Shown piece after piece: positions 14,920 to 30,838 of a DNA stretch of 49,903 nucleotides. A program made the position numbers and the translations under genes. This stretch comes from an uncultured bacterium (GTDB lineage: Bacteria; UBP15; UBA6099; JAJRTR01), in assembly GCA_964595945.1 (NCBI GenBank), contig CAZQSL010000009.1, forward strand, positions 1 through 49,903, read 5' to 3'. Positions within the stretch are counted from its first letter, which is position 1. Every line of letters starts with the position of its first letter. The notes beneath the pieces were generated by a model. It saw only the letters and a program-made list of their open reading frames with translations. It was not told the DNA's origin and did no database searches.

Positions 14920-15963
14920 ATGGCTGAAGAACGAACACTTTATCCTAATTGGCAATCGCTTTGCGAATCCGGCTACTTCAGGCAGCTACCTGACGGCAGG
15001 CTCGAACTCATTGCGCCCGACGTCGACGGAATTATTGATTTCCACACGCATCTGGGGTGGACTGTCCTGCTCGCAAAAAAAGTCGACCTGCTGAAAAGAC
15101 ACCCTGAAACACTGCATGATTTCAATCGCAAACTGAAGGTGGACCTCAGCGTTTACTCGGGTGTCAACTTCTACAACGAGCGCCCCAAATGGGGTAGCGA
15201 AGACTATGTGCCCGCTGCAATTTCTCCATTCACCAATGGCATTCACCATACGCACACGGTACCTAATATCGTCTGGGACATGGATCCACTGAAGATACGG
15301 AAATCCGTGATACTGTCGCTCGACATCAAACTCGGACCGATCCTTTCAGACAACAATTACAGATTCGGCGAAGCGATCAGAAAAGGCGCGCCTGACAGAC
15401 TTGTATTCTTCTGCACAGTACATCCCAGACACCCGCGCCGCGAAAAAGTCATCGAAGACTCCCTTGCGATGGGAGCTATGGGCATGAAAATCCACCCTGA
15501 GATGCTGCTCATGTCGATGCAGGCGCCTGAGATGATAAGCCTCTTGAAACTCTGGAACAAAATCTCGGGCGGGAAACCGGTACTGTTCCACAGCGGATTC
15601 AACGGCTTCGAGCCCAAAAAGGCTCGCGAACACGCCGCCATTGAAACCTATCACTCCGCAGTCGCAGCACTCGAAGGAGGCATCGCCGTACTCGGACACT
15701 CCGCCATGAATCAGTATCGCACAGCCATTGAAATATGCGAAAAATATCCTCACTGCCACCTCGAACTCAGCGGACAGCCCAAGTCACACCTTCGGGAAAT
15801 GCTCGACCGGCTTGGCCCGGATCGCCTGCTGTACGGATCCGACTGGCCCGTATATCCACAGGCCATCCCCATCACAAAAATACTTATGGCAACAGAAGAC
15901 TGTCGTGAATACCGCAAAAAACTCCTTTACGACAATGCCGCAAAACTGCTCTCGCTCACATAA
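14920..15963 (+). CDS. Amidohydrolase-2 family metal-dependent hydrolase (TIM barrel)
   Basis: DFHTHLGW start-of-barrel motif and C-terminal LYGSDWP motif. Strong RBS AAAGGGGAGAGGGG. Confidence 0.75.
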   Translation: MAEERTLYPNWQSLCESGYFRQLPDGRLELIAPDVDGIIDFHTHLGWTVLLAKKVDLLKRHPETLHDFNRKLKVDLSVYSGVNFYNERPKWGSEDYVPAAISPFTNGIHHTHTVPNIVWDMDPLKIRKSVILSLDIKLGPILSDNNYRFGEAIRKGAPDRLVFFCTVHPRHPRREKVIEDSLAMGAMGMKIHPEMLLMSMQAPEMISLLKLWNKISGGKPVLFHSGFNGFEPKKAREHAAIETYHSAVAALEGGIAVLGHSAMNQYRTAIEICEKYPHCHLELSGQPKSHLREMLDRLGPDRLLYGSDWPVYPQAIPITKILMATEDCREYRKKLLYDNAAKLLSLT

Positions 15964-16023
15964 AATATCTTGCTCTCCCACATGGAAACACCTGCAATCT
16001 GAGGCAATATACATGGAGTCGCT

Positions 16024-16899
16024 ATGGACGTGAAATACCTGATATTCATTGGCCTTGCCATGCTGACCCCTGCCATCGAAAACATTGGTCTGGGACTGCA
16101 AAAACTGGCCATAGATAAAATTCCGGCAGCAAATGGCCGCCTGAAAAAATCAGGTTGGACATTCGTGTGGATACTTGGCTTTGCACTGACGATTGTCGTC
16201 GCACTACTGATCTTCAAGACAATGTCACTTGGCAACGCATCAACAGTCGGCGCCTTCAGCGGATTCGGGCTGATCGTTCTTGCTCTGTTCTCACGATTTG
16301 TGCTGAAAGAAAAAATCCTTCCTCGTGAATTGATCGGGATTCTCATCATAATGTCAGGCACATCACTGATCGGGTATTTCAGTCACGGTCACCAGAATAC
16401 ATCGGTTGATTATGACAGTGAGAAACTCCTCATATTCATCCTTTGCCAAGCCTGCCTAATTGGTGCGGGATTTGCCGTGACCGTCAAGGCGCCTCGTCTT
16501 GCCGGAGTAATTCTGGGTATTATTGCGGGGAGCATAGCCGGATTATCGGTCACCACGCAGAAAATACTGTCGCACACATTTCTCGGGCTTTTCCGAGATC
16601 CGCTCCACGCCGACTATGCAGCAATCGCTCTGACTCCAGTCACATGGATTATGGTGCTGTACGGAATCGGAGGAGTCGTTTTGCTGCAATTCGCATATAA
16701 AAAAGGAAAAGCAGTGCAAGTAGTCCCTTCCCGCGCGACCGGTGCAATCCTGACACCCCTCATTGCGGGAGTCGCCTTGCTCAATGAATCAGTGCCGCCA
16801 CTCAGCCTTCTCGGCACATTGGTGATAATTGCCGGCATCATAGTTACCACCACAGCCAATCCAGCCAAAGCAGAGCATCATGGTGTCTCTATGAAATGA
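16024..16899 (+). CDS. Polytopic membrane protein, DMT superfamily (EamA/NIPA-like)
   Basis: About 9-10 hydrophobic helices. Duplicated EamA-like halves. Lies in the same operon as the PLP enzyme and amidohydrolase. Confidence 0.55.
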   Translation: MDVKYLIFIGLAMLTPAIENIGLGLQKLAIDKIPAANGRLKKSGWTFVWILGFALTIVVALLIFKTMSLGNASTVGAFSGFGLIVLALFSRFVLKEKILPRELIGILIIMSGTSLIGYFSHGHQNTSVDYDSEKLLIFILCQACLIGAGFAVTVKAPRLAGVILGIIAGSIAGLSVTTQKILSHTFLGLFRDPLHADYAAIALTPVTWIMVLYGIGGVVLLQFAYKKGKAVQVVPSRATGAILTPLIAGVALLNESVPPLSLLGTLVIIAGIIVTTTANPAKAEHHGVSMK

Positions 16900-16953
16900 T
16901 ACCGATGAGCGTTCATCGAAGTAACATGTATGGATATACGGTGAGGGTAAGAA

Positions 16954-19900
16954 TCATTCAGACGATACAAGCCATGTCTGGAAATGGTCGGGGTGAGTGA
17001 AATCCATGAAGAGCGAGACTTGCCGTTCGAGTTCAGGGAATAGTGCCGTTGCCTGTTCGATGTCGTTTTCTCGGGCGGCGATTTCGACGGCTGAGGCCGA
17101 GGCCCGAAGCTGTCTTGCGGCAACAATGGCGGCGTCGCCGTTGATTTTGTGCGAAACGGCCCTGATCGTATCGAAGTCTTTGGCTTCGATTCCCTGTATG
17201 ATGAGTTCGACATAGCCATCGATGCGCGAGCGAACACGTTCGACAAACTCGGAAGCATATTCCATGTCGTCATCATAGATAGTCTTGAATTCAGCGCGGT
17301 CGATGACATCGGCTCCTGGGGCCTGGTTTTCGCAGGATGGATGTGTGTTCTTTGGCTTGTTATCGTGTAGATGAATGGCGGAATGCATATTGCCGGACTC
17401 CATTGGAGTCTGTTTGATATATCGTTTGATCATGTTGGTCAGACTGTCAGGCAGGACAGGTTTGATGAGGTACTCGTCCATGCCCGATGCGAGCCCGCGA
17501 GCGCGGTCATCGGAGAAAGCGTAAGCGGAAAGGCCCACGATAGGTGTATGGCGACCGGTGGTGGTTTCCCAGTTGCGAATGCTTTGAGTCGCTTCGAAAC
17601 CATCGACGACCGGCATCTGGCAATCCATAAGTATGAGATCGTAACTGCCAGACATTGCCTTTTCGATCGCGATTGCGCCATTGTGCGCAATATCGCAGTC
17701 GGTTATACCGATGCGGTCGAGCATTTCCGTGATGACCATTTGATTGGTTTGATTGTCCTCGACGATGAGCAGGCGAGGGGAGCCATTGGCGAGAGTGAAC
17801 GATTCGAAGGAATCATCTTTGGAAGAATCGTTCATTATGCTGGCGGCAATTTCGAGGTTGACGGTAAACGAGAAAACCGCTCCGCCGTAGTCATTGTTTC
17901 CGGCACTGATCGAGCCGCCCATAGCTTCGACGATTTCGCGTGAGATGGAGAGGCCGAGGCCAGTGCCGCCGTTACTGTCGTGTAGTTGTGCGAATGGCTG
18001 GAAGAGTCCCTCGATGAGGTTATCGGGTATCCCGATGCCGGTGTCACTGACAGTGAAAGTCACGGGCGCATGCGAGTCGCCCGTGTCCTCGATCGCACAT
18101 GTGACGCTGATCGTTCCCCGTGAGGTGAATTTGATGGAATTGCCTACGAAGTTGACGAGCACCTGTCTGAGGCGCAGTCTGTCGGATTTTACACAAATGT
18201 ATTTGGAACCATGGAAAGTGGTTTTCAATACGAGTCCCTTTTCCTTTGCCTTGTGAGCCAGGAGACTGTCGATGTCAGTGAGGATTTCGTAGAGATTGAA
18301 AGTCTCGTTTGCGAGGGTGATGGCGCCGGCTTCGATGCGTGAAAAATCGAGGATGTCGGTAATGAGGCTCATCAGATGATCGGAGGCGGAAACGATGCTG
18401 TCAGTATACGATGCTGCTTTTTGTGGCAGTCCGAGGTCATTGAGCAGACGTCCGAATCCAACTATGGCGTTAAGCGGGGTGCGAAGCTCGTGGCTGATTT
18501 TTGACAGAAATACACTTTTGGCCCTGTTTGCGGATTCGGCTTTTTCCTTTTGGGTGATCAGTTCCGATTCGAGTTTCTTGAGACGGGTGATGTCGATTTG
18601 TGTGCCAGCCATACGGATTGGTTTGCCGTCGGGGTCGCGTTCGATGATTTTCCCACGGTTGAGCACCCATGAATATGATCCGTCGCAACTTTTCAGACGA
18701 TATTCTATTTCATACTTGCCGCTGACGCCTGTTATATAGTGTCTGAGTGTTTCAGCGACGTGCAGTTCGTCATCCGGATGGAGGAGTTCCTTCCAGACTG
18801 TGAGGGCAGAAATGCAGGGGTATGGCTCATAGCCGAGCATTGTCGCCCAACGGTCGTTGAGAGTTATTTCATCGGCGGGGATATTCCAGTCCCATATGCC
18901 GATGTCAGCGCCGAAGATCGCCATTTCAAGCCTTTCGCGGCTCTCCTGAAGCTGTTTTTCTGCAAGTTTTCTCTGTGTGATGTCTTCTGCGATGCCGGCA
19001 GTTCTGAGATTTTCGCCTTCCGTGCCAGCGACGACCCATGACTTGGTGCGTACCCATTTGATGGCTCCGCTTGGTGTGAAGATGCGGAACTCCTGATCGA
19101 AGACACCATTGTTTCTGAAGTCGTTATAATAAATCGTTTTCATCTTTTCGCGATCTTCTTCGACAATATAGTTGCCAAAAAGGGCCGGATTGTCATATAG
19201 TTCGTCGCGGGGGCGTTCCCATATCTGTTCATAGATTGGGCTGATATAGAGGACTTTATCGTTTGATCGAAGCCAGAAAATCTCGTTGACATTTTCTGCG
19301 ATCTGGCGGAATCTGTTTTCGCTTTCGCGAAAAGCGTCTTCCGCGAGTTTTCTGTCGTTGATATTTCTTTTGACCCCCTGAAATCCGATGTGTTTTCCGT
19401 TGGCGTCGAAAATAGGTTTTGTGATCACCTCCACCCAGCATAGGGAGCCATCCTTGCATGCGTGCTGGATCGTGAATTCACCGATTTGGCATTCCTCATA
19501 AACATCGATCGAGGCGAGCCTTGATTGTACTTCTTCGACTGCTTCCGGCGTGATGAATGCAAACAGGTTTTTCCCTATGAGATCATCGACTGTATATCCT
19601 GTCATCGCCTCTTCGGATTTGTTGACATAAGTAAAGTTGAGATCTCTGTCCATTTGCCAGACGACATCGATGATGTTTTCCGTGATGAAGCGGTATTTCG
19701 ATTCGCTTTCGAGTAATTGTTTCTCAGCGATTTTTCGCGAAGTGATATCTCTGATAATCGAGAGTGCTCCTATGTATTTTCCATCGCTGTCGAGGAGGGG
19801 AGTGAGATTGATTTCAGTCGGAAAAACAGTACCGTCCGCCTTGATGTGATCGATTTCCCTTACGACAGATACGGCATGCTCCCTTGCGGTCTGGTAGATT

Positions 19901-20835
19901 TCCGCTATTGCCGCCACACCTTCGGCAGTGACGAATTGTGAATAGTGAAGGCGTGTGACGTCAGTGCCCGGAGGGATGCCGCAGATTTTGTAAGCGACTG
20001 GCGAAGCGAACCTGATGAGGCCGTCCGGAGCTATCAGCACTATGGCATCGGGGGCGGCGTTGATGAGTGTCTGCGAGAGGATTTCAGCGTCTTTGCGTGC
20101 CGCATCAGCGTCGATAATGTCAGATATGTCCTGGATCGCGACAATAATCCCCCTGTTGACTTCGCGGCCCAATAGACATCCGGACATGAGGGCGGTGAAA
20201 ATCCTGCCATCCTTTGCCATAAATTCGATCTGTTTTTCTGAAATCACACCGGTTGTCTTCAATTCGTCGAGAAAAATAATGCGATTCTTTATGTCGAGAT
20301 ACATTTCCTGCGCTTTCGCCCTGGTAAGGTCCTCGGGGAGTTTCAGCAGGAGTCTGGCTTTTTTATTGGCAAATAAAATATGGCCGTCGAAATCCGTAAT
20401 TAAAATGGATACCGGGGCGAATTCCGCTATGATTTTGAATTTATCCCGGGAGACATCCTTGAAGGCACTGGTGTAGTGCGCTTCGTAAGACCTGTCTCGC
20501 ATTGTCACGGTGCACAGTCCGTCATCGGAAGGGATTGCGGTGCATTCGATCACGATCTGTTCGGCGAAAATGGTCTTTTCGATAATATCGCTCTGAGGGG
20601 TATTGGTCGAAAAAGCCGCATTTATCAGTTCCTCGACATTATCCACAATCGAGTCATGGAGCACGGTGTTGAGAGGCTTGTTCAGGCTGTCCGGGGGGAT
20701 TTGGAAGATGAAGCCATCTCTGGGGTTGTGACAAAACAGCAGTATACTCCCGGAGTCGACAATCAGCACCATATCCCTGATACCGTTCATCAGGGATGTC
20801 ATGATGGATTTTCCGTAATCTGTAATTGGACCCAT
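16954..20835 (-). CDS. Hybrid sensor histidine kinase with multiple PAS/PAC domains, HisKA, HATPase_c, receiver and C-terminal HPt domains
   Basis: At least five PAS-like repeats. H-box SHELRTPLN. HATPase G-boxes (DTGIGI, GGTGLGL). REC with LLIVEDN...D. HPt helix-bundle tail. Confidence 0.85.
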   Translation of the reverse strand: MGPITDYGKSIMTSLMNGIRDMVLIVDSGSILLFCHNPRDGFIFQIPPDSLNKPLNTVLHDSIVDNVEELINAAFSTNTPQSDIIEKTIFAEQIVIECTAIPSDDGLCTVTMRDRSYEAHYTSAFKDVSRDKFKIIAEFAPVSILITDFDGHILFANKKARLLLKLPEDLTRAKAQEMYLDIKNRIIFLDELKTTGVISEKQIEFMAKDGRIFTALMSGCLLGREVNRGIIVAIQDISDIIDADAARKDAEILSQTLINAAPDAIVLIAPDGLIRFASPVAYKICGIPPGTDVTRLHYSQFVTAEGVAAIAEIYQTAREHAVSVVREIDHIKADGTVFPTEINLTPLLDSDGKYIGALSIIRDITSRKIAEKQLLESESKYRFITENIIDVVWQMDRDLNFTYVNKSEEAMTGYTVDDLIGKNLFAFITPEAVEEVQSRLASIDVYEECQIGEFTIQHACKDGSLCWVEVITKPIFDANGKHIGFQGVKRNINDRKLAEDAFRESENRFRQIAENVNEIFWLRSNDKVLYISPIYEQIWERPRDELYDNPALFGNYIVEEDREKMKTIYYNDFRNNGVFDQEFRIFTPSGAIKWVRTKSWVVAGTEGENLRTAGIAEDITQRKLAEKQLQESRERLEMAIFGADIGIWDWNIPADEITLNDRWATMLGYEPYPCISALTVWKELLHPDDELHVAETLRHYITGVSGKYEIEYRLKSCDGSYSWVLNRGKIIERDPDGKPIRMAGTQIDITRLKKLESELITQKEKAESANRAKSVFLSKISHELRTPLNAIVGFGRLLNDLGLPQKAASYTDSIVSASDHLMSLITDILDFSRIEAGAITLANETFNLYEILTDIDSLLAHKAKEKGLVLKTTFHGSKYICVKSDRLRLRQVLVNFVGNSIKFTSRGTISVTCAIEDTGDSHAPVTFTVSDTGIGIPDNLIEGLFQPFAQLHDSNGGTGLGLSISREIVEAMGGSISAGNNDYGGAVFSFTVNLEIAASIMNDSSKDDSFESFTLANGSPRLLIVEDNQTNQMVITEMLDRIGITDCDIAHNGAIAIEKAMSGSYDLILMDCQMPVVDGFEATQSIRNWETTTGRHTPIVGLSAYAFSDDRARGLASGMDEYLIKPVLPDSLTNMIKRYIKQTPMESGNMHSAIHLHDNKPKNTHPSCENQAPGADVIDRAEFKTIYDDDMEYASEFVERVRSRIDGYVELIIQGIEAKDFDTIRAVSHKINGDAAIVAARQLRASASAVEIAARENDIEQATALFPELERQVSLFMDFTHPDHFQTWLVSSE

Positions 20836-21031: not shown

Positions 21032-21319
21032 ATGGTACTCGGACGCGTCATAGGCACAGTAGTTGCAACACAAAAGAGTGATTCGCTAACGGGCAGAAAG
21101 CTGATGATGGTGCGCACACTCGATGTCGATCTCAAGCCGACGGAGGAGTATTTCGTTGCTGTGGATGCCGTGGGCTGCGGCAATGATGAAGTTGTGCTCT
21201 GCTCGAAGGGAAGCTCGGCGCGCCAGACTCCCCAGACAAAGAATACTCCCTCGGACATGGTTATTCTCGGCATCGTCGATTACGTTGATATCGATGGGCA
21301 GCAGATTTTCAAAAAGTGA
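21032..21319 (+). CDS. eutN: BMC vertex (pentamer) protein, EutN/CcmL/PduN family
   Basis: MVLGRVIGTVVATQK N-terminus and family length. GGGAG RBS. Confidence 0.9.
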   Translation: MVLGRVIGTVVATQKSDSLTGRKLMMVRTLDVDLKPTEEYFVAVDAVGCGNDEVVLCSKGSSARQTPQTKNTPSDMVILGIVDYVDIDGQQIFKK

Positions 21320-21422
21320 GTGCTGCCGCACAGTTTTCCATTCATGGTATGGCGGGATGGTGTTTTTTCAGTGTACATAATTATGGAATTAAAAAACATA
21401 TAAGGTTTATATGGAGGGTAAA

Positions 21423-21725
21423 ATGGAAAGCCGAATAGCACTTGGACTCATCGAAACCCGCGGACTCGTCGCCGCTATCGAAGCTGCTGACGCAATGGTC
21501 AAGGCAGCCAATGTCACTCTCGTCGGGAAAGAATACATCGGCGGAGGCTATGTCACCATCCTCATCAGAGGCGATGTAGGCGCTGTCAAGGCAGCCACGG
21601 ACGCAGGGGCTGCGGCAGTCGAAAAAATCGGTGAACTCGTCTCCGTACACGTCATTCCCAGACCGCACACCGATGTCGAACTTATCATACCCACCAAAGG
21701 CGTCGCTCCGAAAGCTACTAAATAA
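21423..21725 (+). CDS. eutM: BMC-H hexameric shell protein (EutM/PduA type)
   Basis: [27 protein letters not shown] canonical BMC domain. The upstream in-frame ATG GAGGG at 21411 more likely acts as the RBS. Confidence 0.9.
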
Positions 21726-21772
21726 GACTCCGGCGTTTCGGCTGACAATAGCGTTTCGCAATCATTCTTCGC

Positions 21773-21812
21773 GACGCACCGCGCCGTCTGCACACCGGCG
21801 GCGCGGTGCGTC
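21773..21812 (+). promoter_or_regulatory. Perfect 14-bp GC-rich inverted repeat (GACGCACCGCGCCG / CGGCGCGGTGCGTC, 12-nt loop) between the shell gene and eutB
   Basis: Seen directly. No downstream U-tract, so an intra-operon mRNA processing/stability or attenuator element is more likely than a terminator. Confidence 0.45.
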
Positions 21813-21826
21813 ATACGGGAGTTCTG

Positions 21827-23200
21827 ATGAAGCTTTCCACCACGATCAGAGGCCATTCTTATTCTTTCACCTCAGTTAAGGATGTCCTCGCAAAAGCTAA
21901 TGAGGAAAAATCCGGCGATACCCTCGCGAAGGTCGGCGCATTGTCCGATCTGGAGCGCATCGCCGCCAAACACGTACTTAGCGAACTCACTCTCGAAGAC
22001 CTTCGCAATAATCCCGTCGTACCCTATGAGGAAGACGAAGTGACGCGCGTCATCGACGACCAGGTCAACGAGACTATCTATGCTGACATCAAAAACTGGT
22101 CAGTCGGCGAGCTGCGCGAGTATATCCTCAAACCCACGACCACTAATCACCACATCCGCCGCATTTCCAACGGCCTGACATCCGAAATGGTTGCCGGGTG
22201 CGCGAAGCTTATGGGCGCTATGGACCTGATACTCGGCGCACAAAAGATCGAAGTGGTCGTTCACGCAAACAACACGATAGGACTTCCCGGCACACTTGGT
22301 TCGCGCCTCCAGCCCAATCATCCCACCGATGACATTGACGGCATACTTGCTTCGGCAAAGGAGGGGCTGGCCTACGGCTGCGGCGATGCGGTCATTGGCG
22401 TAAACCCTTGCATCGATTCACCCAAGAAGGTCACCGAAATCCTCAAGGCGCTCGAAGAAGTCCGCCTGAAGTGGGACATACCGACGCAGTTGTGCGTACT
22501 CGCTCACGTCACCACACAAATGGAAGCCATCAAACTCGGCGCGCCCACCGGCCTCACATTCCAGTCGCTCGCCGGCAGCGAAGCCGCCTGCAAGGCGTTC
22601 GGCATAAATGTCGCGATGCTCGACGAGGCATACGAACTTTCTAAAAAATACAACAATGCCGCCGGTCCCAATGTCATGTACTTCGAGACAGGGCAGGGGT
22701 CCGAACTATCCTCTAACGGACATCACGGCGCCGACCAGACAACACTCGAAGCCCGCTGCTACGGCCTCGCGAAACGCTATAGTCCTTTCATGGTCAATTC
22801 CGTCGTAGGATTCATCGGCCCAGAATATCTCTTCAATGGACGGCAGGTGATACGCGCCGGACTCGAAGATCATTTCATGGGCAAGCTCACCGGCATTTCG
22901 ATGGGCCTCGACTCCTGCTACACCAATCACATGGACACCGATCAATCCGACATAGAAAACCTCGCCGTGCTGCTGACCATGGCTGGCATCAATTTCTTCA
23001 TGTGCGTGCCGATGGGCGATGACATCATGCTCAACTACCAGCTCACATCGTTCCATGACATCGCCGCGCTACGTGAAATCTGTGGCAAACGTCCCGCGCC
23101 GGAATTCGAACAGTGGCTCGAAAAAATTGGTCTCATGGAAAACGGCCGCCTCACAAAGCTCGCGGGCGACGCATCTTTTTTTGACGGGGAGGCCCGATGA
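21827..23200 (+). CDS. eutB: Ethanolamine ammonia-lyase large subunit
   Basis: Full-length EutB similarity (MKLSTTIRG...). GGGAG RBS. The ORF-track GTG at 21806 is an upstream extension. Confidence 0.92.
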   Translation: MKLSTTIRGHSYSFTSVKDVLAKANEEKSGDTLAKVGALSDLERIAAKHVLSELTLEDLRNNPVVPYEEDEVTRVIDDQVNETIYADIKNWSVGELREYILKPTTTNHHIRRISNGLTSEMVAGCAKLMGAMDLILGAQKIEVVVHANNTIGLPGTLGSRLQPNHPTDDIDGILASAKEGLAYGCGDAVIGVNPCIDSPKKVTEILKALEEVRLKWDIPTQLCVLAHVTTQMEAIKLGAPTGLTFQSLAGSEAACKAFGINVAMLDEAYELSKKYNNAAGPNVMYFETGQGSELSSNGHHGADQTTLEARCYGLAKRYSPFMVNSVVGFIGPEYLFNGRQVIRAGLEDHFMGKLTGISMGLDSCYTNHMDTDQSDIENLAVLLTMAGINFFMCVPMGDDIMLNYQLTSFHDIAALREICGKRPAPEFEQWLEKIGLMENGRLTKLAGDASFFDGEAR

Positions 23201-24048
23201 GCCAGTCGGACGATCTCAGGAAACTCATAGCGGAAGTTGTCCGCGACGTGCTCGAAGAAACAGGGGCAACAGCTCAGGCCGAACCTGCCACAACATACGG
23301 CGCTGACGGTGACGATCTGCGGAACCGTGTGCTCATGCCATGTGAAAAGCAGCGCGCGGCTCTTGAAAAAATGCGCCAGTCAACCCCCGCCCGTATCGGC
23401 GTCTGGCGCGCGGGAGCACGCTATAAAACCGAATCCTACCTCAAGGCGCGAGCCGATCATGCCGTCGCACGTGATGCTGTCCTCATATCGCTCGATAAGG
23501 CGAAAATCGAACAGCTCGGCATCCTGTATGTCGATTCGGCCGCCGCTAACAAAACGGAATTTCTCATCAATCCCTCGCTTGGCCGCCGACTGTCCGATGT
23601 GTCCGCCGAATCCGTAAAGGCGAATTGCCCGTCGGAAACTGACGTTCAGATCGTCATCTGCGATGGCCTTTCATCGGCTGCCATCGAACTCAACATTGCT
23701 TCGTTCCTTCCGGCACTTATGAATAACCTTCAGGGCAAGGGCCTCAAACTCGGCAAACCAATCTATGTGAATAACGGACGCGTTGCCGTGCAGGATCAGA
23801 TCGGCGATATCCTTCGCCCACGTATCGCACTCAGCATCGTCGGCGAACGCCCCGGACTCGTGACTGCCGAATCGATGGGCTGTTACATTACTTACAATCC
23901 ATCATCCGAACGCGTCGAAGCCGAGCGCACCATGATTTCCAATATCCACAAAGGTGGACTGCATCCGCAGAAAGCAGCTGTGGAAATTGCAGAAAAGACA
24001 CGCAAAATTTTCGATCAGAAAGCCTCAGGAATGGGCTTCAAGGAGTAA
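23197..24048 (+). CDS. eutC: Ethanolamine ammonia-lyase small subunit with N-terminal amphipathic encapsulation-peptide-like helix
   Basis: ATGA overlap with eutB. VAVQDQIGDILRPRIALSIVGERPGL core. N-terminal DDLRKLIAEVVRDVLEE. Confidence 0.9.
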   Translation: MSQSDDLRKLIAEVVRDVLEETGATAQAEPATTYGADGDDLRNRVLMPCEKQRAALEKMRQSTPARIGVWRAGARYKTESYLKARADHAVARDAVLISLDKAKIEQLGILYVDSAAANKTEFLINPSLGRRLSDVSAESVKANCPSETDVQIVICDGLSSAAIELNIASFLPALMNNLQGKGLKLGKPIYVNNGRVAVQDQIGDILRPRIALSIVGERPGLVTAESMGCYITYNPSSERVEAERTMISNIHKGGLHPQKAAVEIAEKTRKIFDQKASGMGFKE

Positions 24049-24056
24049 TCACCAAG

Positions 24057-24710
24057 ATGCCTCTCGAACCAGTAAAACCAAAAGTCCTTGCCGCACGGAT
24101 TATTCCGCGCGTCAACGATTTCTATCATAAGCAACTTGATCTTCTGCCCGAAGAAGCGTGCATCGGCATGATTACGGCCACGTCCGACGATGCAACATAC
24201 GTATCGCTCGACCACGCGACTAAAGCCGCACAGGTGCGGGTCGTTTATGCCGAATCATTCTACGCTGGCGCGGGAGCGGCGTCCGGCCCACTGAGCGGCG
24301 AAGTCATCGGCATCATTTCAGGCACTGATCCGTCCGAGGTGAAAAGTGGCCTCGACGCGGCCATACAGTACCTTGAAGAAAGCGCGTGGTTCTACACCGG
24401 CGACGACGATGGACACCTCGTATTCTTTCCGCATGTCATTTCACGCGCTGGCGCATATCTGTCCGATCTCGCGCAGGTGCCTTTCGGCAGTCCTCTTTCA
24501 TATCTCATCGCGCCCCCTATCGAAGCCATGTACGCAATGGACCGTTCGCTCAAGGAAGCGGATGTGCAGATGCAGGTGTTCTGGGGTCCGCCGTCGCACA
24601 CCAACTTTGCTGGATGCCTGCTGACAGGTTCGCAAAGTGCGTGTCAGGAATCGGCAAAAGTGTTTTCAGATGCAATCATTGAAGTGGCAGCAAACCCGAT
24701 GCGATTCTGA
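24057..24710 (+). CDS. eutL: BMC-T tandem-domain shell protein EutL
   Basis: Length and sequence are typical of EutL. AGGAG RBS. Confidence 0.85.
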   Translation: MPLEPVKPKVLAARIIPRVNDFYHKQLDLLPEEACIGMITATSDDATYVSLDHATKAAQVRVVYAESFYAGAGAASGPLSGEVIGIISGTDPSEVKSGLDAAIQYLEESAWFYTGDDDGHLVFFPHVISRAGAYLSDLAQVPFGSPLSYLIAPPIEAMYAMDRSLKEADVQMQVFWGPPSHTNFAGCLLTGSQSACQESAKVFSDAIIEVAANPMRF

Positions 24711-24786
24711 TCTGTCGCAGACAAATGTATTTTTGGCCGGATTACCGAATCCCGGCGAAACAAAATAACGGTCAAGAGTGATCACA

Positions 24787-26229
24787 ATGGACAAAGACCT
24801 CGCAGGAATACAGGAAGCACGCGACAAGGTGGCGGCCGCGGTTGCCGCGCAAAAACTACTCGCCGAATTTTCCCAGGAGAAGATCGACCGAATTGTCGCC
24901 CGCATGTGTCAGGCAGGAGCACAGGCAGCCGAAAAGCTCGCGCGTATGGCTGTCGAAGAATCCGGCATGGGCAAAGTTGACGACAAAACCGCGAAAAACG
25001 AACTCGCCACCAGCGGGCTGTATGAATATATTAAGGATATGAAAACCGCAGGCATCGTCAGTGAAGACAAGACGCGAAAAATGTGGGAAGTGGCCGTACC
25101 GGTCGGCGTAGTCGCGGCGATCACGCCCACCACCAATCCAACGTCTACAACGATGCACAATGCGATAGTGGCGATGAAGGCCCGTTGCGCCTCGGTCATC
25201 AGCCCACATCCGCGCTCGAAGAACTGTTCTGCCGAAGCCATCGGCATACTGATGGCGGCGGCGCATTCAGCCGGCGCACCCGAAGGCTCGCTTAATTGTC
25301 TTACATCAGGCACGATGGGTGGCACGACTGAAATAATGAAGAACAGCGGCACGTCGGTCATCGTCGCCACCGGTGGTTCCGACATGGTTCGCGCGGCATA
25401 TTCATGCGGAAAACCGGCCTATGGCGTTGGCCCCGGCAATGTCCCCGCATTCATAGAACGAACCGCCGACATCGAAAAAGCGGTCCGCGATGTCCTGATT
25501 TCAAAATCATTCGATTATGGTGTGATATGCGCGTCCGAACAGGCCATTGTCACTGAAAGGCCAATTCGCGACAAGGTTATTGCGTCGCTTAAACGCAATG
25601 GAGCTTATGTGATGAACACCGATGAAATTGCTAAAATCAATAAAATCATACAGACTCCGGCAGGTGGCCTCAACGCTAAAATTGTCGGGCAGAGCGCCGA
25701 AAAGCTGGCTCAGATGGCAGGATTCAGCGTGCCGAAAAACACGCCCGCACTCGTCGGTGAAATCGACGGCGTTGGGAAAGCATATCCACTTTCCCGCGAA
25801 AAACTCGCCCCGATCCTCGCGCTCTATGTAGAAGACGGATGGGAAAGCGCGTGCGCGCGCTGCATGGAAATGCTCGAATATGGTGGTATTGGTCACACAC
25901 TCGGGCTCCATACGACGAACATTGACCTTGTCAAGGAATTCGCTCTCAAAAAACCTGTCGCACGTCTCATCGTAAATTCGCCGACAACACATGGCGCGGT
26001 TGGTCTTTCTACCGGACTTGCCCCGTCGTTTACACTCGGGTGCGGCGCGGTCGGCGGCACTATTACGACCGACAACATCACGCCCATGCACCTGATAAAT
26101 CTAAAACGTGTAGCGTTCGAACTGAAATCCTTCAACAAGCCCTCCGGCCCGGTCACTACTGATGATGGCGACCTCTCGGGCACAATCCGCAAAGTTGTTT
26201 CACGTCTCATGAAAGAGCAGGCAAAATGA
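24787..26229 (+). CDS. eutE: CoA-acylating acetaldehyde dehydrogenase EutE
   Basis: ALDH fold with catalytic Cys in GVICASEQ. The start could instead be the GTG at 24778. The C-terminal tail [29 protein letters not shown] resembles a linker plus encapsulation helix. Confidence 0.85.
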
Positions 26230-26990
26230 AGAGAGAAGTCCTGACTGAAATAAAACTTCGCGCCCTGAAAAAACAGGGCATTAATCAGGTGGCAATCACC
26301 GAAGGTACGCTTGTCACGCCATCAGCGCGCGACTTTGCCCGGCAGGCTGGCATAACTGTCACGGTCAACGAAGCATCTGTCGCCACGTCCGCGCCTTCGA
26401 AGACAGCCGGGAAATACACTCCGCCCGTAGCGCCAAAAGGCTCCTTCACTAACAGCTATACTGGCGAATCGCTCGATGCGAAACCCGAACATTTTACACA
26501 TCTGCAAGGCAATGTGCTTGTGCAGAAGAATCACCCGCGCATTGCATTCCGTGGCCAGATCGACAAAATTCAGGCCTACGTCGTCGAAGCTCAGATACTT
26601 GCGAAACAGGAGAAAATACCCGCTCTCGAATCAGACCTCGACGATGTGCTCAAGCTCCTGCGCGAGATTATGCGCGCCGAAGTACGCGACGTACCGCTTG
26701 CTGATGTTCCGGTTTTCGGTCTTACTGTCGAGCAACTCCGGGAGGCGTCACACAATCCAGCTAAATTTTTCAATACCGGCCATACGCTTGCCGATAAAAA
26801 TTCGAGCATGGCGGTCGCGCGTATCAACATCATGCGGACCATCGTCCGCGAGGCCGAAATCACCGCGCTTGACGCATTCGCGGGCGGTGTCACTCTCAAG
26901 CCCGAACGCAGTGATATTCTAACTGCCATGAACCGCCTTTCGAGCGCGTTTTACATCTTGATGTGCAAATATTCTGGAGGGTCGGAATGA
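26226..26990 (+). CDS. eutT: EutT-type ATP:cob(I)alamin adenosyltransferase
   Basis: ATGA overlap with eutE. N-terminal LTPSARDF motif and C-terminal ILTAMNRLSSAFYILM motif align to Salmonella EutT. Confidence 0.8.
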   Translation: MKREVLTEIKLRALKKQGINQVAITEGTLVTPSARDFARQAGITVTVNEASVATSAPSKTAGKYTPPVAPKGSFTNSYTGESLDAKPEHFTHLQGNVLVQKNHPRIAFRGQIDKIQAYVVEAQILAKQEKIPALESDLDDVLKLLREIMRAEVRDVPLADVPVFGLTVEQLREASHNPAKFFNTGHTLADKNSSMAVARINIMRTIVREAEITALDAFAGGVTLKPERSDILTAMNRLSSAFYILMCKYSGGSE

Positions 26991-27655
26991 GCGCACGCGA
27001 AGACCAGATCGCCGCGCGAATACTCGCGGAACTAAATAAGGATAAAACGCAGGCGGCGCCAGGCGCGCGATGCAAACTTGACCGCAAATCCATACCAGTC
27101 GGCATTTCCAACCGTCACCTGCACCTCTGCCGGGCCGATCTTGACGCGCTATTCGGTTCGGGGTATGAACTTTCGAAAAAGAATGACCTGTCGCAGAAAG
27201 GGGAATTCGCTTCGAACGAACTGGTCACGCTCACCGGCCCACGGGGCAGCATAGAAAAGGTTCGAGTGCTCGGCCCGCTTCGCCCGGAAACACAGATTGA
27301 AATTTCTCCGACTGATGCCCGCCGCCTCGGAGTGATGCCCCCAGTGCGTCTTTCCGGAGATACCAAAGGCACGCCTGGCCTCACTATCAAGGGGCCGGCT
27401 GGCGAAGTGAAAATGAATTCCGGGCTGATCATCGCCAAGCGTCATCTGCACGCCAATCCCGAACAGGCCAAAGTGCTCGGACTCCGCGATGGCGATGTCA
27501 TCAGCATAAGGGCGCTGACCGAACGGCCCACAATATTCGAAGGCGTGTCAGTCAGAGTGCGCCCGTCATTTGAAATCGAACTCCACATCGATGTGGACGA
27601 AGCCAACGCCGCGATGATAAATAACGGCGACTCAGTCGAAATTGTGAGGAAATAA
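26987..27655 (+). CDS. pduL: PduL-type phosphotransacylase (phosphate acetyl/propanoyl-transferase) with N-terminal encapsulation peptide
   Basis: ATGA overlap with eutT. GGAGG RBS. Duplicated PduL half-domains. Confidence 0.85.
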   Translation: MSAREDQIAARILAELNKDKTQAAPGARCKLDRKSIPVGISNRHLHLCRADLDALFGSGYELSKKNDLSQKGEFASNELVTLTGPRGSIEKVRVLGPLRPETQIEISPTDARRLGVMPPVRLSGDTKGTPGLTIKGPAGEVKMNSGLIIAKRHLHANPEQAKVLGLRDGDVISIRALTERPTIFEGVSVRVRPSFEIELHIDVDEANAAMINNGDSVEIVRK

Positions 27656-27957
27656 TGGCTAAATACAGATTCATAAAAACTCCGACCCGCAACACCATAG
27701 AAATCATCAAGCGCCGGCTCGTAAGCCGTGACCGTGCCGACGAACTCGACTGGACGGCAGTCGGCCTTGTGCAATGCAGTGTGGCCGACATCATCTACGC
27801 ATCCGATGTTGCCGAAAAAACTTCCGATATAATCGCGCTCGAACTCTCCGGCACATGCCCGCAGCACATCACCACTCTTGCGTTGTTCGGCGAAACGGCG
27901 GCGGTCGACGCGGCGCTCGAATCAGTCAAACGCGCTCTCGCCGAGACCGAATGCTGA
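27655..27957 (+). CDS. Circularly permuted BMC shell protein (EutS/PduU type)
   Basis: About 100 aa with a permuted BMC fold. TAATG overlap with pduL. Confidence 0.8.
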   Translation: MAKYRFIKTPTRNTIEIIKRRLVSRDRADELDWTAVGLVQCSVADIIYASDVAEKTSDIIALELSGTCPQHITTLALFGETAAVDAALESVKRALAETEC

Positions 27958-27995
27958 CACGGTGAAACATATATAAAGGATTAAGGTGGGAATCA

Positions 27996-29321
27996 TTGAA
28001 CCGCGATGAACTCGTAAAAATTGTCAGGGACGCTGGAATTGTTGGCTGCGGCGGCGCGGGGTTCCCAACGCACGTCAAGGTCAATGCCAGCGCCGAAGTG
28101 GTGATCGCTAACGGCGCATCGTGCGAACCGCTCCTGCATTCGGACATCCATCTACTCGAACACGAGGCCGGAGGCGTAGTGCGCGGACTGCGTTATGTGA
28201 TGGATGCCGTCGGCGCGAAACGCGGTGTCATTGCCATCAAAAAGAAACATCCAGAAGCCATTTCCGCGGTGGAGCGAGTACTCACAACCGGGATTGAAAT
28301 TTTTACGCTCGAAGATTTTTATCCCGCTGGCGATGAACAGGTTCTCGTATATGAAATCATGGGCAAAATTGTGCCTGAAGGGGGCATTCCGCTCAATGTC
28401 GGCGCGGTTGTGGACAACATCGAAACGCTGTTCAACATCACTCGCGCAGTCGATGGATTCCCCGTCACGCACAGGTGGCTGACGGTAGCGGGAGCAGTGA
28501 GGAAACCCCGCGTGATGCTCGCTCCCGTTGGTGCGCCACTTAGTGAAATACTCGCGCTCGCGGGCGGTGCCACTGTCACGAGTGCCGGCTATATCGAGGG
28601 CGGTCCGATGATGGGCAAAATCATTGACATCGAAACTGCCGTCGTCAAAAAGACCACCACCGGACTGCTTGTTTTTCCGGCTGATCATGTGATTTTTACA
28701 CGCCGCGAAATGTCAATCGAAGCGATCATCAGGCGCGGCATGTCTGCCTGCACGCAATGTACTTACTGTACGGACATGTGCCCGCGATACCTGATCGGCC
28801 ATCGACTGCGCCCCAATCTCACGATGCGCTCCGTCGCGTTCAGCCATTTCGATCCCGAAGGCCCGGCTTCCGATGCCCTTATTTGCTGTGAGTGTGGAGT
28901 CTGCGAAACGACTGCCTGCAATCTCGGCCTGTCGCCGATGCGCGTGAACATGATGCTGAAGAAAAGATATGCGGAAGAGGGCGTAAAATTCAAACGGACG
29001 GAAACGGCGCTCGAAGTCCATCCGTTCAGGTATGCACGGCTCACGCCGATCAAAAATATCATGCAGCGCGGCGACATGCTTGAATGGTACGGGCAGAAAT
29101 TATCAGATGTTACTGAGCTTTTCACGCAACGAGTGGAAGTGCCTCTTAGCCAGCACATAGGCGCTCCTTGTGAAGCTATCGTAGCTCCTGGAGCAAAGGT
29201 GAAGCTGTTCGAAATGATAGGCAAACCATCCGATGGAAAACTCGGCGCGCCGGTGCATTCACCGATAGACGGAACTGTAAAAGATATTACTGACGGAAGA
29301 ATAACAATTGAGGCGAAATGA
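27996..29321 (+). CDS. pduS: PduS-like cobalamin reductase (RnfC/NqrF-like flavin-NAD domain plus two 4Fe-4S clusters)
   Basis: N-terminal GIVGCGGAGFPTHVK motif. Cys clusters CTQCTYCTDMCP and CCECGVCETTAC. TTG start after AAGGTGGG RBS. Confidence 0.8.
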   Translation: MNRDELVKIVRDAGIVGCGGAGFPTHVKVNASAEVVIANGASCEPLLHSDIHLLEHEAGGVVRGLRYVMDAVGAKRGVIAIKKKHPEAISAVERVLTTGIEIFTLEDFYPAGDEQVLVYEIMGKIVPEGGIPLNVGAVVDNIETLFNITRAVDGFPVTHRWLTVAGAVRKPRVMLAPVGAPLSEILALAGGATVTSAGYIEGGPMMGKIIDIETAVVKKTTTGLLVFPADHVIFTRREMSIEAIIRRGMSACTQCTYCTDMCPRYLIGHRLRPNLTMRSVAFSHFDPEGPASDALICCECGVCETTACNLGLSPMRVNMMLKKRYAEEGVKFKRTETALEVHPFRYARLTPIKNIMQRGDMLEWYGQKLSDVTELFTQRVEVPLSQHIGAPCEAIVAPGAKVKLFEMIGKPSDGKLGAPVHSPIDGTVKDITDGRITIEAK

Positions 29322-29875
29322 TGCAGCGAACAATCGGAATGGTTGAATTTCTCAGCGTCGCTAAGGGCATCGAAGGTATCGACGTAATGCTCAAGGCGGC
29401 GGATGTGCAGCTACTTGCGGCAAAACCACTCTGTCCCGGCAAATACATGGTGATGGTAGGCGGCGACGCGGCAGAAGTGGACAGTTCCGTGCAGGCAGGC
29501 ATCAGACATGGCTCGCACTTCATCGTCGGTTACACCTGCATCAACAATGTCCATGAAATGGTGTTCCCTGCGATATGGGGCACTTCAAAATACGACTTGC
29601 GCGCGCTCGGTGTCGTAGAGACTTACAACGTCGTAACAGCAGTTCGCGCAGCCGACATCGCGGCGAAATCAGCCGACATCGAATTGATCGAGCTCCGGCT
29701 TTCGGTTGGCCTCGGCGGCAAGGCATTCATCACACTAACCGGATATGTAGACGCCGTACAGACAGCAGTGGATGCCGGGGCGGCGCTCGCCAACGCTACG
29801 GGCGAACTCGTCAGCAGCGTGGTTATCGCAGCTCCTCATCCTGATTTACACAGGGCGATCAGTACGCCCGTCTGA
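29318..29875 (+). CDS. pduT: BMC-T tandem shell protein, PduT-like
   Basis: 185 aa, two BMC domains. ATGA overlap with pduS. Confidence 0.8.
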   Translation: MMQRTIGMVEFLSVAKGIEGIDVMLKAADVQLLAAKPLCPGKYMVMVGGDAAEVDSSVQAGIRHGSHFIVGYTCINNVHEMVFPAIWGTSKYDLRALGVVETYNVVTAVRAADIAAKSADIELIELRLSVGLGGKAFITLTGYVDAVQTAVDAGAALANATGELVSSVVIAAPHPDLHRAISTPV

Positions 29876-30207
29876 TGAAAAATGACGACTCACACAGGTG
29901 CGATATGGGAAAACTTATTACGAAAAAAGAGATTGTAGAAGCAAACGCGAAACACTTTTCGGAACTCGAAGTGCCATGCGACGCCATCATCACCCCACTT
30001 GCGCAGGATGCCGCGAAACAATATGGCATCGAGATCGTAAAGTCGGGCGGCCCAAGCCGCGCGTGTGACGTACGCTCGCTTCAGGGCGGAGCGGTCGATG
30101 AGGCGGCCATCGAGAAAATCGCGCGCATGGCAATAAGCGACCTCGGTGATAAAGCCGACCTCGAAACGGTCATCCGCATTGTCGAAAAAGTCGTCAGGAA
30201 AATGTAG
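29875..30207 (+). CDS. Small BMC-operon protein homologous to the N-terminal domain of EutT (ITPLAQD motif) with an amphipathic C-terminal helix
   Basis: ATGA overlap with pduT; the start could instead be the ATG at 29905 after an AGGTG. Motif EVPCDAIITPLAQDAAKQYGIEIV parallels EutT QVAITEGTLVTPSARDFARQAGITVTV. The C-terminal DLETVIRIVEKVVRKM resembles the EutE tail [14 protein letters not shown]. Confidence 0.6.
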   Translation: MKNDDSHRCDMGKLITKKEIVEANAKHFSELEVPCDAIITPLAQDAAKQYGIEIVKSGGPSRACDVRSLQGGAVDEAAIEKIARMAISDLGDKADLETVIRIVEKVVRKM

Positions 30208-30309: not shown

Positions 30310-30771
30310 TTATACGAAATAGTACCATTTGTTCATTGGGATTTCTTGTGGATGTATTTCATGGATCGTTCTGATAATTTGCTCCGAGTATTGAACTGCA
30401 ATGTCGGCATCTTCATCAAGCACTTTCATCACGACATCATTGTCGCCTGATGATCGATATCTGAAAAGCTTGGAGTGCATTTCCCCAAAATCCTGCTGGT
30501 ATCTTCCACTTTTCACAAGTTCACGGGGAACTGCTGATGCGACTTGCTGATGTTTCTTGAACATCGCGCCTTCCATTACAGCAAACAATGCACATACAGC
30601 ATAGAACGCAGCGTAGTAAGCCCGATTTGTCAGATCGAAGCCAGTCCTGACTTGCAGGCGATCATCGCGGTCAATTCGCAGGGCCGTCAGAAGATCACGC
30701 GCAAGGCATACTTCAAGATCGAGTTCACGAACGGCTCCATCATCAACTTTAGACCGGTTGGCGCTTACCAT
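30310..30771 (-). CDS. HEPN domain protein (solo, no MNT partner)
   Basis: RAYYAAFYAVCALFA helix. The C-terminal half matches the HEPN pattern. The ORF-track upstream start is a TTG; the ATG at 30771 is chosen. Confidence 0.55.
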   Translation of the reverse strand: MVSANRSKVDDGAVRELDLEVCLARDLLTALRIDRDDRLQVRTGFDLTNRAYYAAFYAVCALFAVMEGAMFKKHQQVASAVPRELVKSGRYQQDFGEMHSKLFRYRSSGDNDVVMKVLDEDADIAVQYSEQIIRTIHEIHPQEIPMNKWYYFV

Positions 30772-30838
30772 TACAAGCAGTTCGCAATTATTGCGACTGC
30801 CCAATGCGGCATATGGATTTCCACATGCCGCATTGGGC

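Follow-up and report, generated by a model that had tools for sequence, protein, structure and literature searches.

A free-standing homologue of the EutQ N-terminal region, probably a shell-cargo linker, at the end of a bacterial ethanolamine microcompartment operon

How is the enzyme core tied to the shell of an ethanolamine bacterial microcompartment (BMC) when no EutQ with a cupin domain is encoded nearby? This question is raised by contig CAZQSL010000009.1 (assembly GCA_964595945.1) of an uncultured bacterium of the lineage UBP15, of which we analysed a stretch of 49,903 nucleotides (hereafter, the window; its coordinates are on the + strand unless noted). The last gene of a compact operon of 12 co-directional genes is an open reading frame (ORF) of 110 codons (ATG to TAG) exactly at 29875-30207. 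A PduL-type transacylase, PduS/PduT, and an aldehyde dehydrogenase that is extended at its C-terminus mark the locus as one of the EUT2 kind (for the criteria, see PMC4207490 and PMC8217296). An initial annotation, made from the sequence alone, described the product as an orphan that could not be assigned to a named family, with a core like the N-terminus of the operon's own EutT and a tail like the C-terminus of EutE. We found that the small protein is a free-standing, cupin-less homologue of EutQ's N-terminal region. By analogy with EutQ, it is probably the shell-cargo linker of the ethanolamine microcompartment.

In Salmonella, residues 1-99 of EutQ are sufficient to target green fluorescent protein to the BMC, and the deletion of residues 9-99 parts the shell from the cargo (PMC12487888). 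The cupin domain is dispensable; the deletion of residues 100-229, which leaves residues 1-99, still allows BMC formation (PMC12487888). Helices H1 and H2 associate with the EutM/EutL shell, helices H3 and H4 bind the encapsulation peptides EutC 1-20 and EutE 1-20, the substitutions L89A and V93A abolish the peptide binding, and EutL is required for the EutQ-mediated encapsulation (PMC12487888). In vitro, the removal of EutQ 1-100 abolishes EutM binding, and K53 and D57 of EutM are required for EutQ binding (PMC4827028). EutQ of Enterococcus and Listeria does not have the first three helices, and assembly there 'may vary substantially' (PMC12487888).

The best whole-length match of the small protein was to residues 1-99 of EutQ, whereas EutT matched only about 45 residues. 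The EutQ family models were NCBIfam NF012001 / Pfam PF06249; with the NCBIfam EutQ model PRK15457, residues 11-108 of the small protein were aligned with profile positions 1-99 of 233 (E 2.9e-5). The Smith-Waterman alignment with E. coli EutQ 1-105 (sequence taken from MG1655) ran end to end from Met11 (z = 8.7), with MGKLIT against MKKLIT at the start and EKVVRK against EKVMKE in the last helix. When an alignment of six family members (described below) was compared with E. coli EutQ by hhalign, the probability was 91.9% (E 7e-7) over EutQ 1-99. As a leave-window-out search, a hidden Markov model (HMM) of the five homologues from other loci was run against the 368 ORFs of the window and E. coli EutQ. 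It found the small ORF (E 1e-8, residues 13-109), the N-terminus of EutT (E 2e-8, only the module described below) and, end to end, E. coli EutQ 1-99 (E 1.5e-6); nothing else in this set was below E 0.04. The similarity to EutQ was detected by hmmsearch, by hhalign and by Smith-Waterman with shuffles, but missed by BLASTP with composition adjustment. Thus a named homologous region could be given to the protein by profile, pairwise and profile-profile methods, contrary to the initial annotation. The cupin part of EutQ (residues 100-229) is absent; no cupin was found in the small protein with Pfam, and the protein ends after H4 at residue 110.

The alignments with E. coli EutQ, Salmonella EutQ and the small-protein family all begin at Met11, so the actual product may be the 100-residue protein (MGKLITKK...) encoded at 29905-30207, with AGGTG 4 nucleotides upstream of its ATG at 29905. 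The first ATG of the 110-codon ORF overlaps the stop codon of pduT as TGATG, which suggests translational coupling.

Three parts can be distinguished in the protein. Residues 12-56 (KLITKKEIVEANAKHFSELEVPCDAIITPLAQDAAKQYGIEIV; 29908-30042) form what we call the H1/H2 module, delimited by the module HMM (residues 13-56), by positions 163-207 of the NCBIfam model TIGR02536, and by EutQ 1-45. By analogy with EutQ, this module may dock on the shell. A Gly/Pro/Ser-rich linker follows (residues 57-75; 30043-30099), with gaps and low conservation in the alignments and no predicted helix; it is the counterpart of the flexible region 42-61 of EutQ. The third part consists of helix H3 (residues 76-93, DEAAIEKIARMAISDLG; 30100-30153) and helix H4, an encapsulation-peptide-like tail (residues 96-110, DLETVIRIVEKVVRKM; 30160-30204). 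Both are helices in an AlphaFold2 model and align with H3 and H4 of EutQ, and the H4 tail would, as in EutQ, bind the encapsulation peptides of the cargo. The initial annotation took the tail for a putative targeting helix, but the tail corresponds to EutQ H4, which in Salmonella binds the encapsulation peptides of the cargo (PMC12487888) and is not simply one itself.

AlphaFold2 was run on the single sequence, without an alignment. Numbered from Met11, the predicted helices are 7-15, 31-39, 66-83 and 86-93; the stretch that parts H2 from H3 is not helical, and confidence is low at the extreme C-terminal end. This is also the pattern of EutQ 1-99, in which a long flexible region separates the second of the four helices from the third (PMC12487888). 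The module profile (from the family alignment, A5) showed a weak L7Ae-like (YbxF) resemblance to PDB entries 4lck_A and 3v7e_A over 48 residues (E ~0.1), on which we do not rely; it hints that the H1/H2 module forms a small alpha/beta unit and not two separate helices. The AlphaFold2 model also places short strands after H2. A Pfam match to Ribosomal_L11 (E 0.014) was set aside, since its 16.2 bits are under the cut-off of 21.4 and the family does not suit the context.

As for the residues critical in EutQ, L89 and V93 of Salmonella presumably correspond to I102 and V106 of the small protein, hydrophobics conserved in kind, and R67 presumably corresponds to K81, a conservative change. The Salmonella sequence used for this mapping was checked only against the five residue identities given in PMC12487888 and against E. 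coli EutQ.

Does the small protein have relatives with the same build? A word-indexed homologue search returned only the protein itself, and an exhaustive phmmer search of 1.84 billion representative proteins returned only itself, P0003 and P0002. P0003 is an 88-residue protein in which an encapsulation-peptide-like helix precedes the module, and it adjoins EutN; P0002, a perfect tandem repeat of 494 residues, was judged to be an assembly artefact. Scans of genome contigs with PduS, or with an alignment of the small protein and P0003, returned nothing, and the PduT homologues found were only satellite shell genes in Acidobacteriota and Firmicutes, without eut context. Homologues of EutT (at most about 41% identical) led to EUT2 loci, and a metagenome scan with the EutT alignment gave 80 more. 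All ORFs of the fetched loci were then scanned with the module HMM.

In five other EUT2 loci, a protein of 92-106 residues and like build is encoded directly 3' of pduT: in L006/L007 (14985-15284), L015 (16787-17107), L035 (10626-10904), L048 (15298-15588) and L023 (15241-15537; recognised by eye). Including the one of the window, the genes of all six members follow pduT directly on its 3' side, 0-40 nucleotides away, and occur nowhere else in 85 loci. Their common build in alignment A5 is the module, a Gly/Pro/Ser-rich linker, and one or two amphipathic helices; the protein of the window shares both features of the family, namely a build of 90-110 residues and a gene immediately downstream of pduT in an EUT2-type locus. 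The genes belong to no Pfam or NCBIfam family. Accordingly, 'orphan' holds for close relatives, of which none was found among the 1.84 billion representative proteins, but not for distant ones, which are present in five loci and share a named homologous region, EutQ 1-99.

Gene callers can truncate such genes. The public gene call in L006/L007 begins at 15036 (82 residues) and loses helix H1; from the GTG at 14985, the protein has 99 residues with the complete module. L024 contains a frameshifted copy of the L023 homologue. In L048, which already has eutB and eutC upstream, a second EutB/EutC pair (15592-17872) directly follows the small-protein gene.

EutQ has the module of about 45 residues at its N-terminus; all EUT2 EutT proteins have it as well, and in TIGR02536-like proteins and some PduL it is C-terminal. 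The scan gave 85 hits in EutT and 6 in small proteins (N-terminal in both), and 30 in TIGR02536-like proteins and 13 in PduL (C-terminal in both). In the window, the EutT module comprises residues 2-47 (26229-26366). The initial annotation had noticed this parallel, which we could confirm: the Smith-Waterman comparison of the small protein with EutT 1-60 gave z = 6.0 (1 of 2000 shuffles equal), and both proteins match the C-terminal positions ~161-207 of TIGR02536 (E 2e-5 for the small protein and 1e-6 for EutT). In the small protein, the TIGR02536 match is limited to positions 163-207 of 207 (24.3 bits against a cut-off of 152.6). The catalytic region of EutT is missing, as also stated earlier; Pfam gave no match to the Cob_adeno_trans domain (PF01923), and the likeness is confined to EutT residues 1-49.

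Every EutT examined has the N-terminal module ahead of the catalytic domain, including those of the window, of 24 of 24 aligned homologues, and of E. coli (L001 8503-9306), which suggests that EutT and EutQ use one and the same element to dock on the shell. Some PduL proteins (L013 10752-11654; L016, L027, L045, L070 and others) have an encapsulation-peptide-like N-terminal helix and a C-terminal module. The attachment of the module to several BMC proteins indicates that it is portable, which fits a docking role.

The TIGR02536-like proteins are encoded between eutJ and eutN (L006 12204-12797; L009 12306-13049; L008 11230-11517; L003 156-422). Their lengths range from 88 to about 285 residues, but an encapsulation-peptide-like helix is always N-terminal and the module always C-terminal; the shortest, with just a linker between these two, are circular permutations of the small protein. 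A protein with this reverse order is present in 23 of the 28 other dereplicated EUT2 loci (N-terminal helices, for example, MEKDLEFIVQEVLKRIK, MNYEKLIAEIVTRVIEKLE and RSELVEEIVARVAAKLA). In Listeria, a complex of EutL with TIGR02536 has been predicted computationally in a proteome-wide study (PMC13181095). The C-terminus of PduM from PDU microcompartments matches the module only weakly (E 0.002-0.01). EutQ in the fetched EUT2 loci is short, with one N-terminal helix and the cupin domain, which agrees with the published remark on Gram-positive EutQ without the first three helices. The window is the only sampled locus that has the small protein without a reverse-order protein. Since it encodes neither a cupin EutQ nor a TIGR02536-like protein, the small protein is its only protein that combines the module with an encapsulation-peptide-like helix.

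What could the tail bind? Its specific likeness to the C-terminus of EutE was not clearly above chance: the pairwise comparison gave z = 2.0 (p ~0.05), and on a profile made from 32 C-terminal peptides of EutE from other EUT2 loci the tail scored 4.3 bits, which 1.2% of shuffles reach (p = 0.012). The window's own EutE tail scored only 2.6 bits against this profile. The pattern 'DL..hI..VV+' is common to the tail (ADLETVIRIVEKVVRKM), the C-terminus of EutE, and the N-terminus of EutC (DDLRKLIAEVVRDVLEE). Because the statistics are weak but the pattern is shared, the initial annotation had seen a resemblance of class and not a relationship to EutE. The tail may thus be an amphipathic helix of the encapsulation-peptide type, with no specific relationship to EutE.

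The operon supplies three candidate ligands for H3/H4. The putative encapsulation-peptide-like helix of EutC is N-terminal (DDLRKLIAEVVRDVLEET; 23209-23262), the EutC domain beginning only at residue 55, and that of EutE is C-terminal (26170-26226). The third is at the N-terminus of PduL. EUT2-type aldehyde dehydrogenases bear a C-terminal encapsulation peptide (PMC8217296). On the shell side, EutM (21411-21725), the major shell hexamer, and EutL (24057-24710), a shell pseudohexamer, are candidate docking partners for H1/H2. In EutM of the window, K53 and D57 are conserved and Q64 is replaced by E.

Our proposal is as follows. The H1/H2 module would dock on the shell, at EutM/EutL or possibly at the adjacent PduT, while the C-terminal amphipathic helices would pack against the encapsulation-peptide helices of the cargo (the N-terminus of EutC, the C-terminus of EutE, and the N-terminus of PduL). 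In this manner, the small protein would link enzyme core and shell while the compartment assembles. We regard it as a naturally occurring counterpart of the engineered cupin-less EutQ because EutQ 1-99 is the linker in Salmonella, the critical hydrophobics are kept, and the operon supplies ligands and shell partners. The suggestion in the initial annotation of a BMC accessory factor, for example a scaffold, is close to this role, as the protein has no catalytic domain but a module and a helical tail.

Several points weigh against this reading. Only about 25-30% of residues are identical with EutQ 1-99, and the EutQ profile score of 23.9 bits is far below the curated whole-protein cut-off of 193 bits. 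The C-terminal half alone has marginal likeness to EutQ (p ~0.014) and to the L006 homologue (p ~0.08), and the register of H3/H4 by MAFFT and hhalign differs from that in the pairwise alignment. Of the five EutQ contact residues, three are presumably replaced in our mapping (E64 by A, Q75 by D and R67 by K). The confidence of the AlphaFold2 model is moderate (predicted local distance difference test score, 65.6; predicted template modelling score, 0.52), and Foldseek found no solved structure in the PDB with E below 0.6. EutQ works as a cupin-mediated dimer, and no known dimerisation element is present in the small protein. In addition, the family was found in only 5 of about 26 distinct pduT-bearing EUT2 loci. 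Because a TIGR02536-like protein is also encoded in four of these five, the small protein may have an auxiliary part and not be the main linker.

The small protein could also be no more than a passenger, encapsulated or attached to the shell, or it could modulate assembly, for instance by competing for the shell sites of EutT and for encapsulation-peptide sites and so tuning cargo stoichiometry without bridging; the real linker in those four loci could be the TIGR02536-like protein. A passenger or modulator would agree with the presence of the module on enzymes that need only targeting (the N-terminus of EutT and the C-terminus of PduL) and with the weak match of the tail to the encapsulation-peptide profile. 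Nevertheless, two binding elements without an enzyme are a linker-like make-up, the engineered equivalent EutQ 1-99 supports BMC formation (PMC12487888), and the window has no alternative linker candidate; we regard a non-bridging role as rather improbable. The position of the genes raises the question of an adaptor specific for PduT, in which H1/H2 would dock on this Fe-S shell protein and the tail would recruit PduS and/or EutT, so that cobalamin reduction and adenosylation are held at the PduT pore. All six family members are directly 3' of pduT and nowhere else in the 85 loci, and PduT shares the tandem-BMC trimer form with EutL, which Salmonella EutQ needs (PMC12487888). Since the L035 gene follows a pduT copy that does not adjoin pduS, the link is to PduT itself. 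The common position, however, may be inherited synteny and not a functional link, the homologous EutQ module works in EUT1 loci without PduT, EutT already bears its own copy of the module, and no encapsulation-peptide-like helix was identified on PduS of the window. We therefore consider a PduT-specific adaptor unlikely, if less so than a passenger. It is the closest form of the cobalamin/adenosyltransferase partner proposed in the initial annotation, for which we found nothing specific; the module is also on EutQ, PduL and TIGR02536-like proteins.

It could also be asked whether the gene is functional at all. No close relatives were found in the 1.84 billion representative proteins, the gene is at the operon end with no terminator detected, and an antisense ORF of 107 residues overlaps it, as might be expected for a spurious ORF or for a decaying 5' remnant of a once full-length eutQ that lost its cupin. 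Independent stand-alone homologues of like length in five loci, with the same end point after H4, contradict this, as do the agreement of codon-position base composition with that of the operon and the stop-start overlap with pduT. Only about 100 nucleotides of non-coding sequence, with no cupin remnant, precede the convergent HEPN gene. We consider such an origin very improbable, and the shell-cargo linker remains the probable function of the small protein.

The operon (21032-30207) is unusually minimal. It begins with EutN (21032-21319), and EutM is followed by EutB (21806-23200) and EutC (23197-24048). After EutL come EutE, an acetylating aldehyde dehydrogenase (24778-26229), EutT (26226-26990), the PduL-type phosphotransacylase (26963/26987-27655), a BMC protein of 100 residues with a weak BMC match (27655-27957), the PduS/RnfC-like flavoprotein PduS (27996-29321), and the tandem BMC shell protein PduT (29318-29875), directly upstream of the small gene. 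The next gene, on the - strand, encodes a HEPN-domain protein (30310-30804) and is only about 100 nucleotides from the stop codon of the small gene, which is thus the last of the operon, as previously annotated; no terminator-like site was detected between the two. In the whole window, there is no EutA (the reactivase), EutH, EutJ, EutP, EutG, cupin EutQ or TIGR02536-like protein, and no EutV/W two-component pair. No Rfam family was found anywhere in the window and hence no cobalamin riboswitch. A large PAS-rich hybrid histidine kinase, encoded divergently upstream (16954-20835, - strand), may be the regulator of the eut operon.

In the case of PduL, the listed ORF starts at a GTG (26963) inside eutT. 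The ATG at 26987, which overlaps the eutT stop codon (ATGA), is probably the true start and gives an encapsulation-peptide-like N-terminus (MSAREDQIAARILAELNK). The 100-residue protein at 27655-27957 matches the BMC domain only weakly and in part (28.5 bits, residues 35-95) and belongs to no NCBIfam family. It occupies the place taken in other EUT2 loci by EutJ, TIGR02536 and EutN, and might be a shell protein that is divergent or permuted.

That the EutQ N-terminus acts as a linker is already known, and existing profiles implicitly contain the module on EutT and TIGR02536. In the searchable literature, we did not find the stand-alone cupin-less form as a recurrent pduT-adjacent family, its permuted relationship to the TIGR02536-like proteins, or the implications of both for shell-cargo linking in EUT2 compartments. 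In at least some EUT2-type loci, the part that EutQ of Enterococcus and Listeria lacks is a separate small gene. As a tentative generalisation, for which the balance is slightly unfavourable at present, EUT2 (Firmicute-type) compartments, with EutQ lacking H1-H3, might use the linking mechanism of Salmonella split over genes, with a docking module of about 45 residues and an encapsulation-peptide-like helix combined in either order. The forms would be the pduT-adjacent protein, the TIGR02536/PduM type, and the EutT and PduL fusions, and the long enterobacterial EutQ would be the small protein fused to a short cupin EutQ. The small protein is a concrete, testable linker candidate for EUT2 compartments and, with its 100 residues, a natural 'minimal linker' for engineering synthetic compartments; the module is a sequence signature by which shell-associated proteins of BMC loci may be predicted.

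Among known systems, CcmN, CsoS2 and PduB(1-37) have the same proposed role between shell and cargo (the comparison is drawn in PMC12487888), but by analogy only, as no sequence relationship of the small protein to these three was detected. The N-terminal extension of EutT, in the metal-free EUT2 type as well as in E. coli EutT, shares the module with the small protein; EutT goes on into the PF01923 catalytic domain, whereas the small protein goes on into the linker and H3/H4. TIGR02536 ('eut_hyp') of EUT2 loci has the same H1/H2 module and an encapsulation-peptide-like amphipathic helix, but with the helix N-terminal and the module C-terminal, in proteins of 95-330 residues with an extra middle region, encoded between eutJ and eutN. 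EutQ of the EUT1 loci of Salmonella and E. coli has a cupin (acetate kinase) domain and a cupin-mediated dimer, neither of which the small protein has, and its gene is between eutP and eutT, whereas the small gene adjoins pduT in an EUT2-type locus with PduL, a C-terminal encapsulation peptide on EutE, and PduS/PduT. Both are encoded in ethanolamine BMC operons, and EutQ 1-99 and the small protein have the same colinear layout of H1/H2, flexible linker, and H3/H4.

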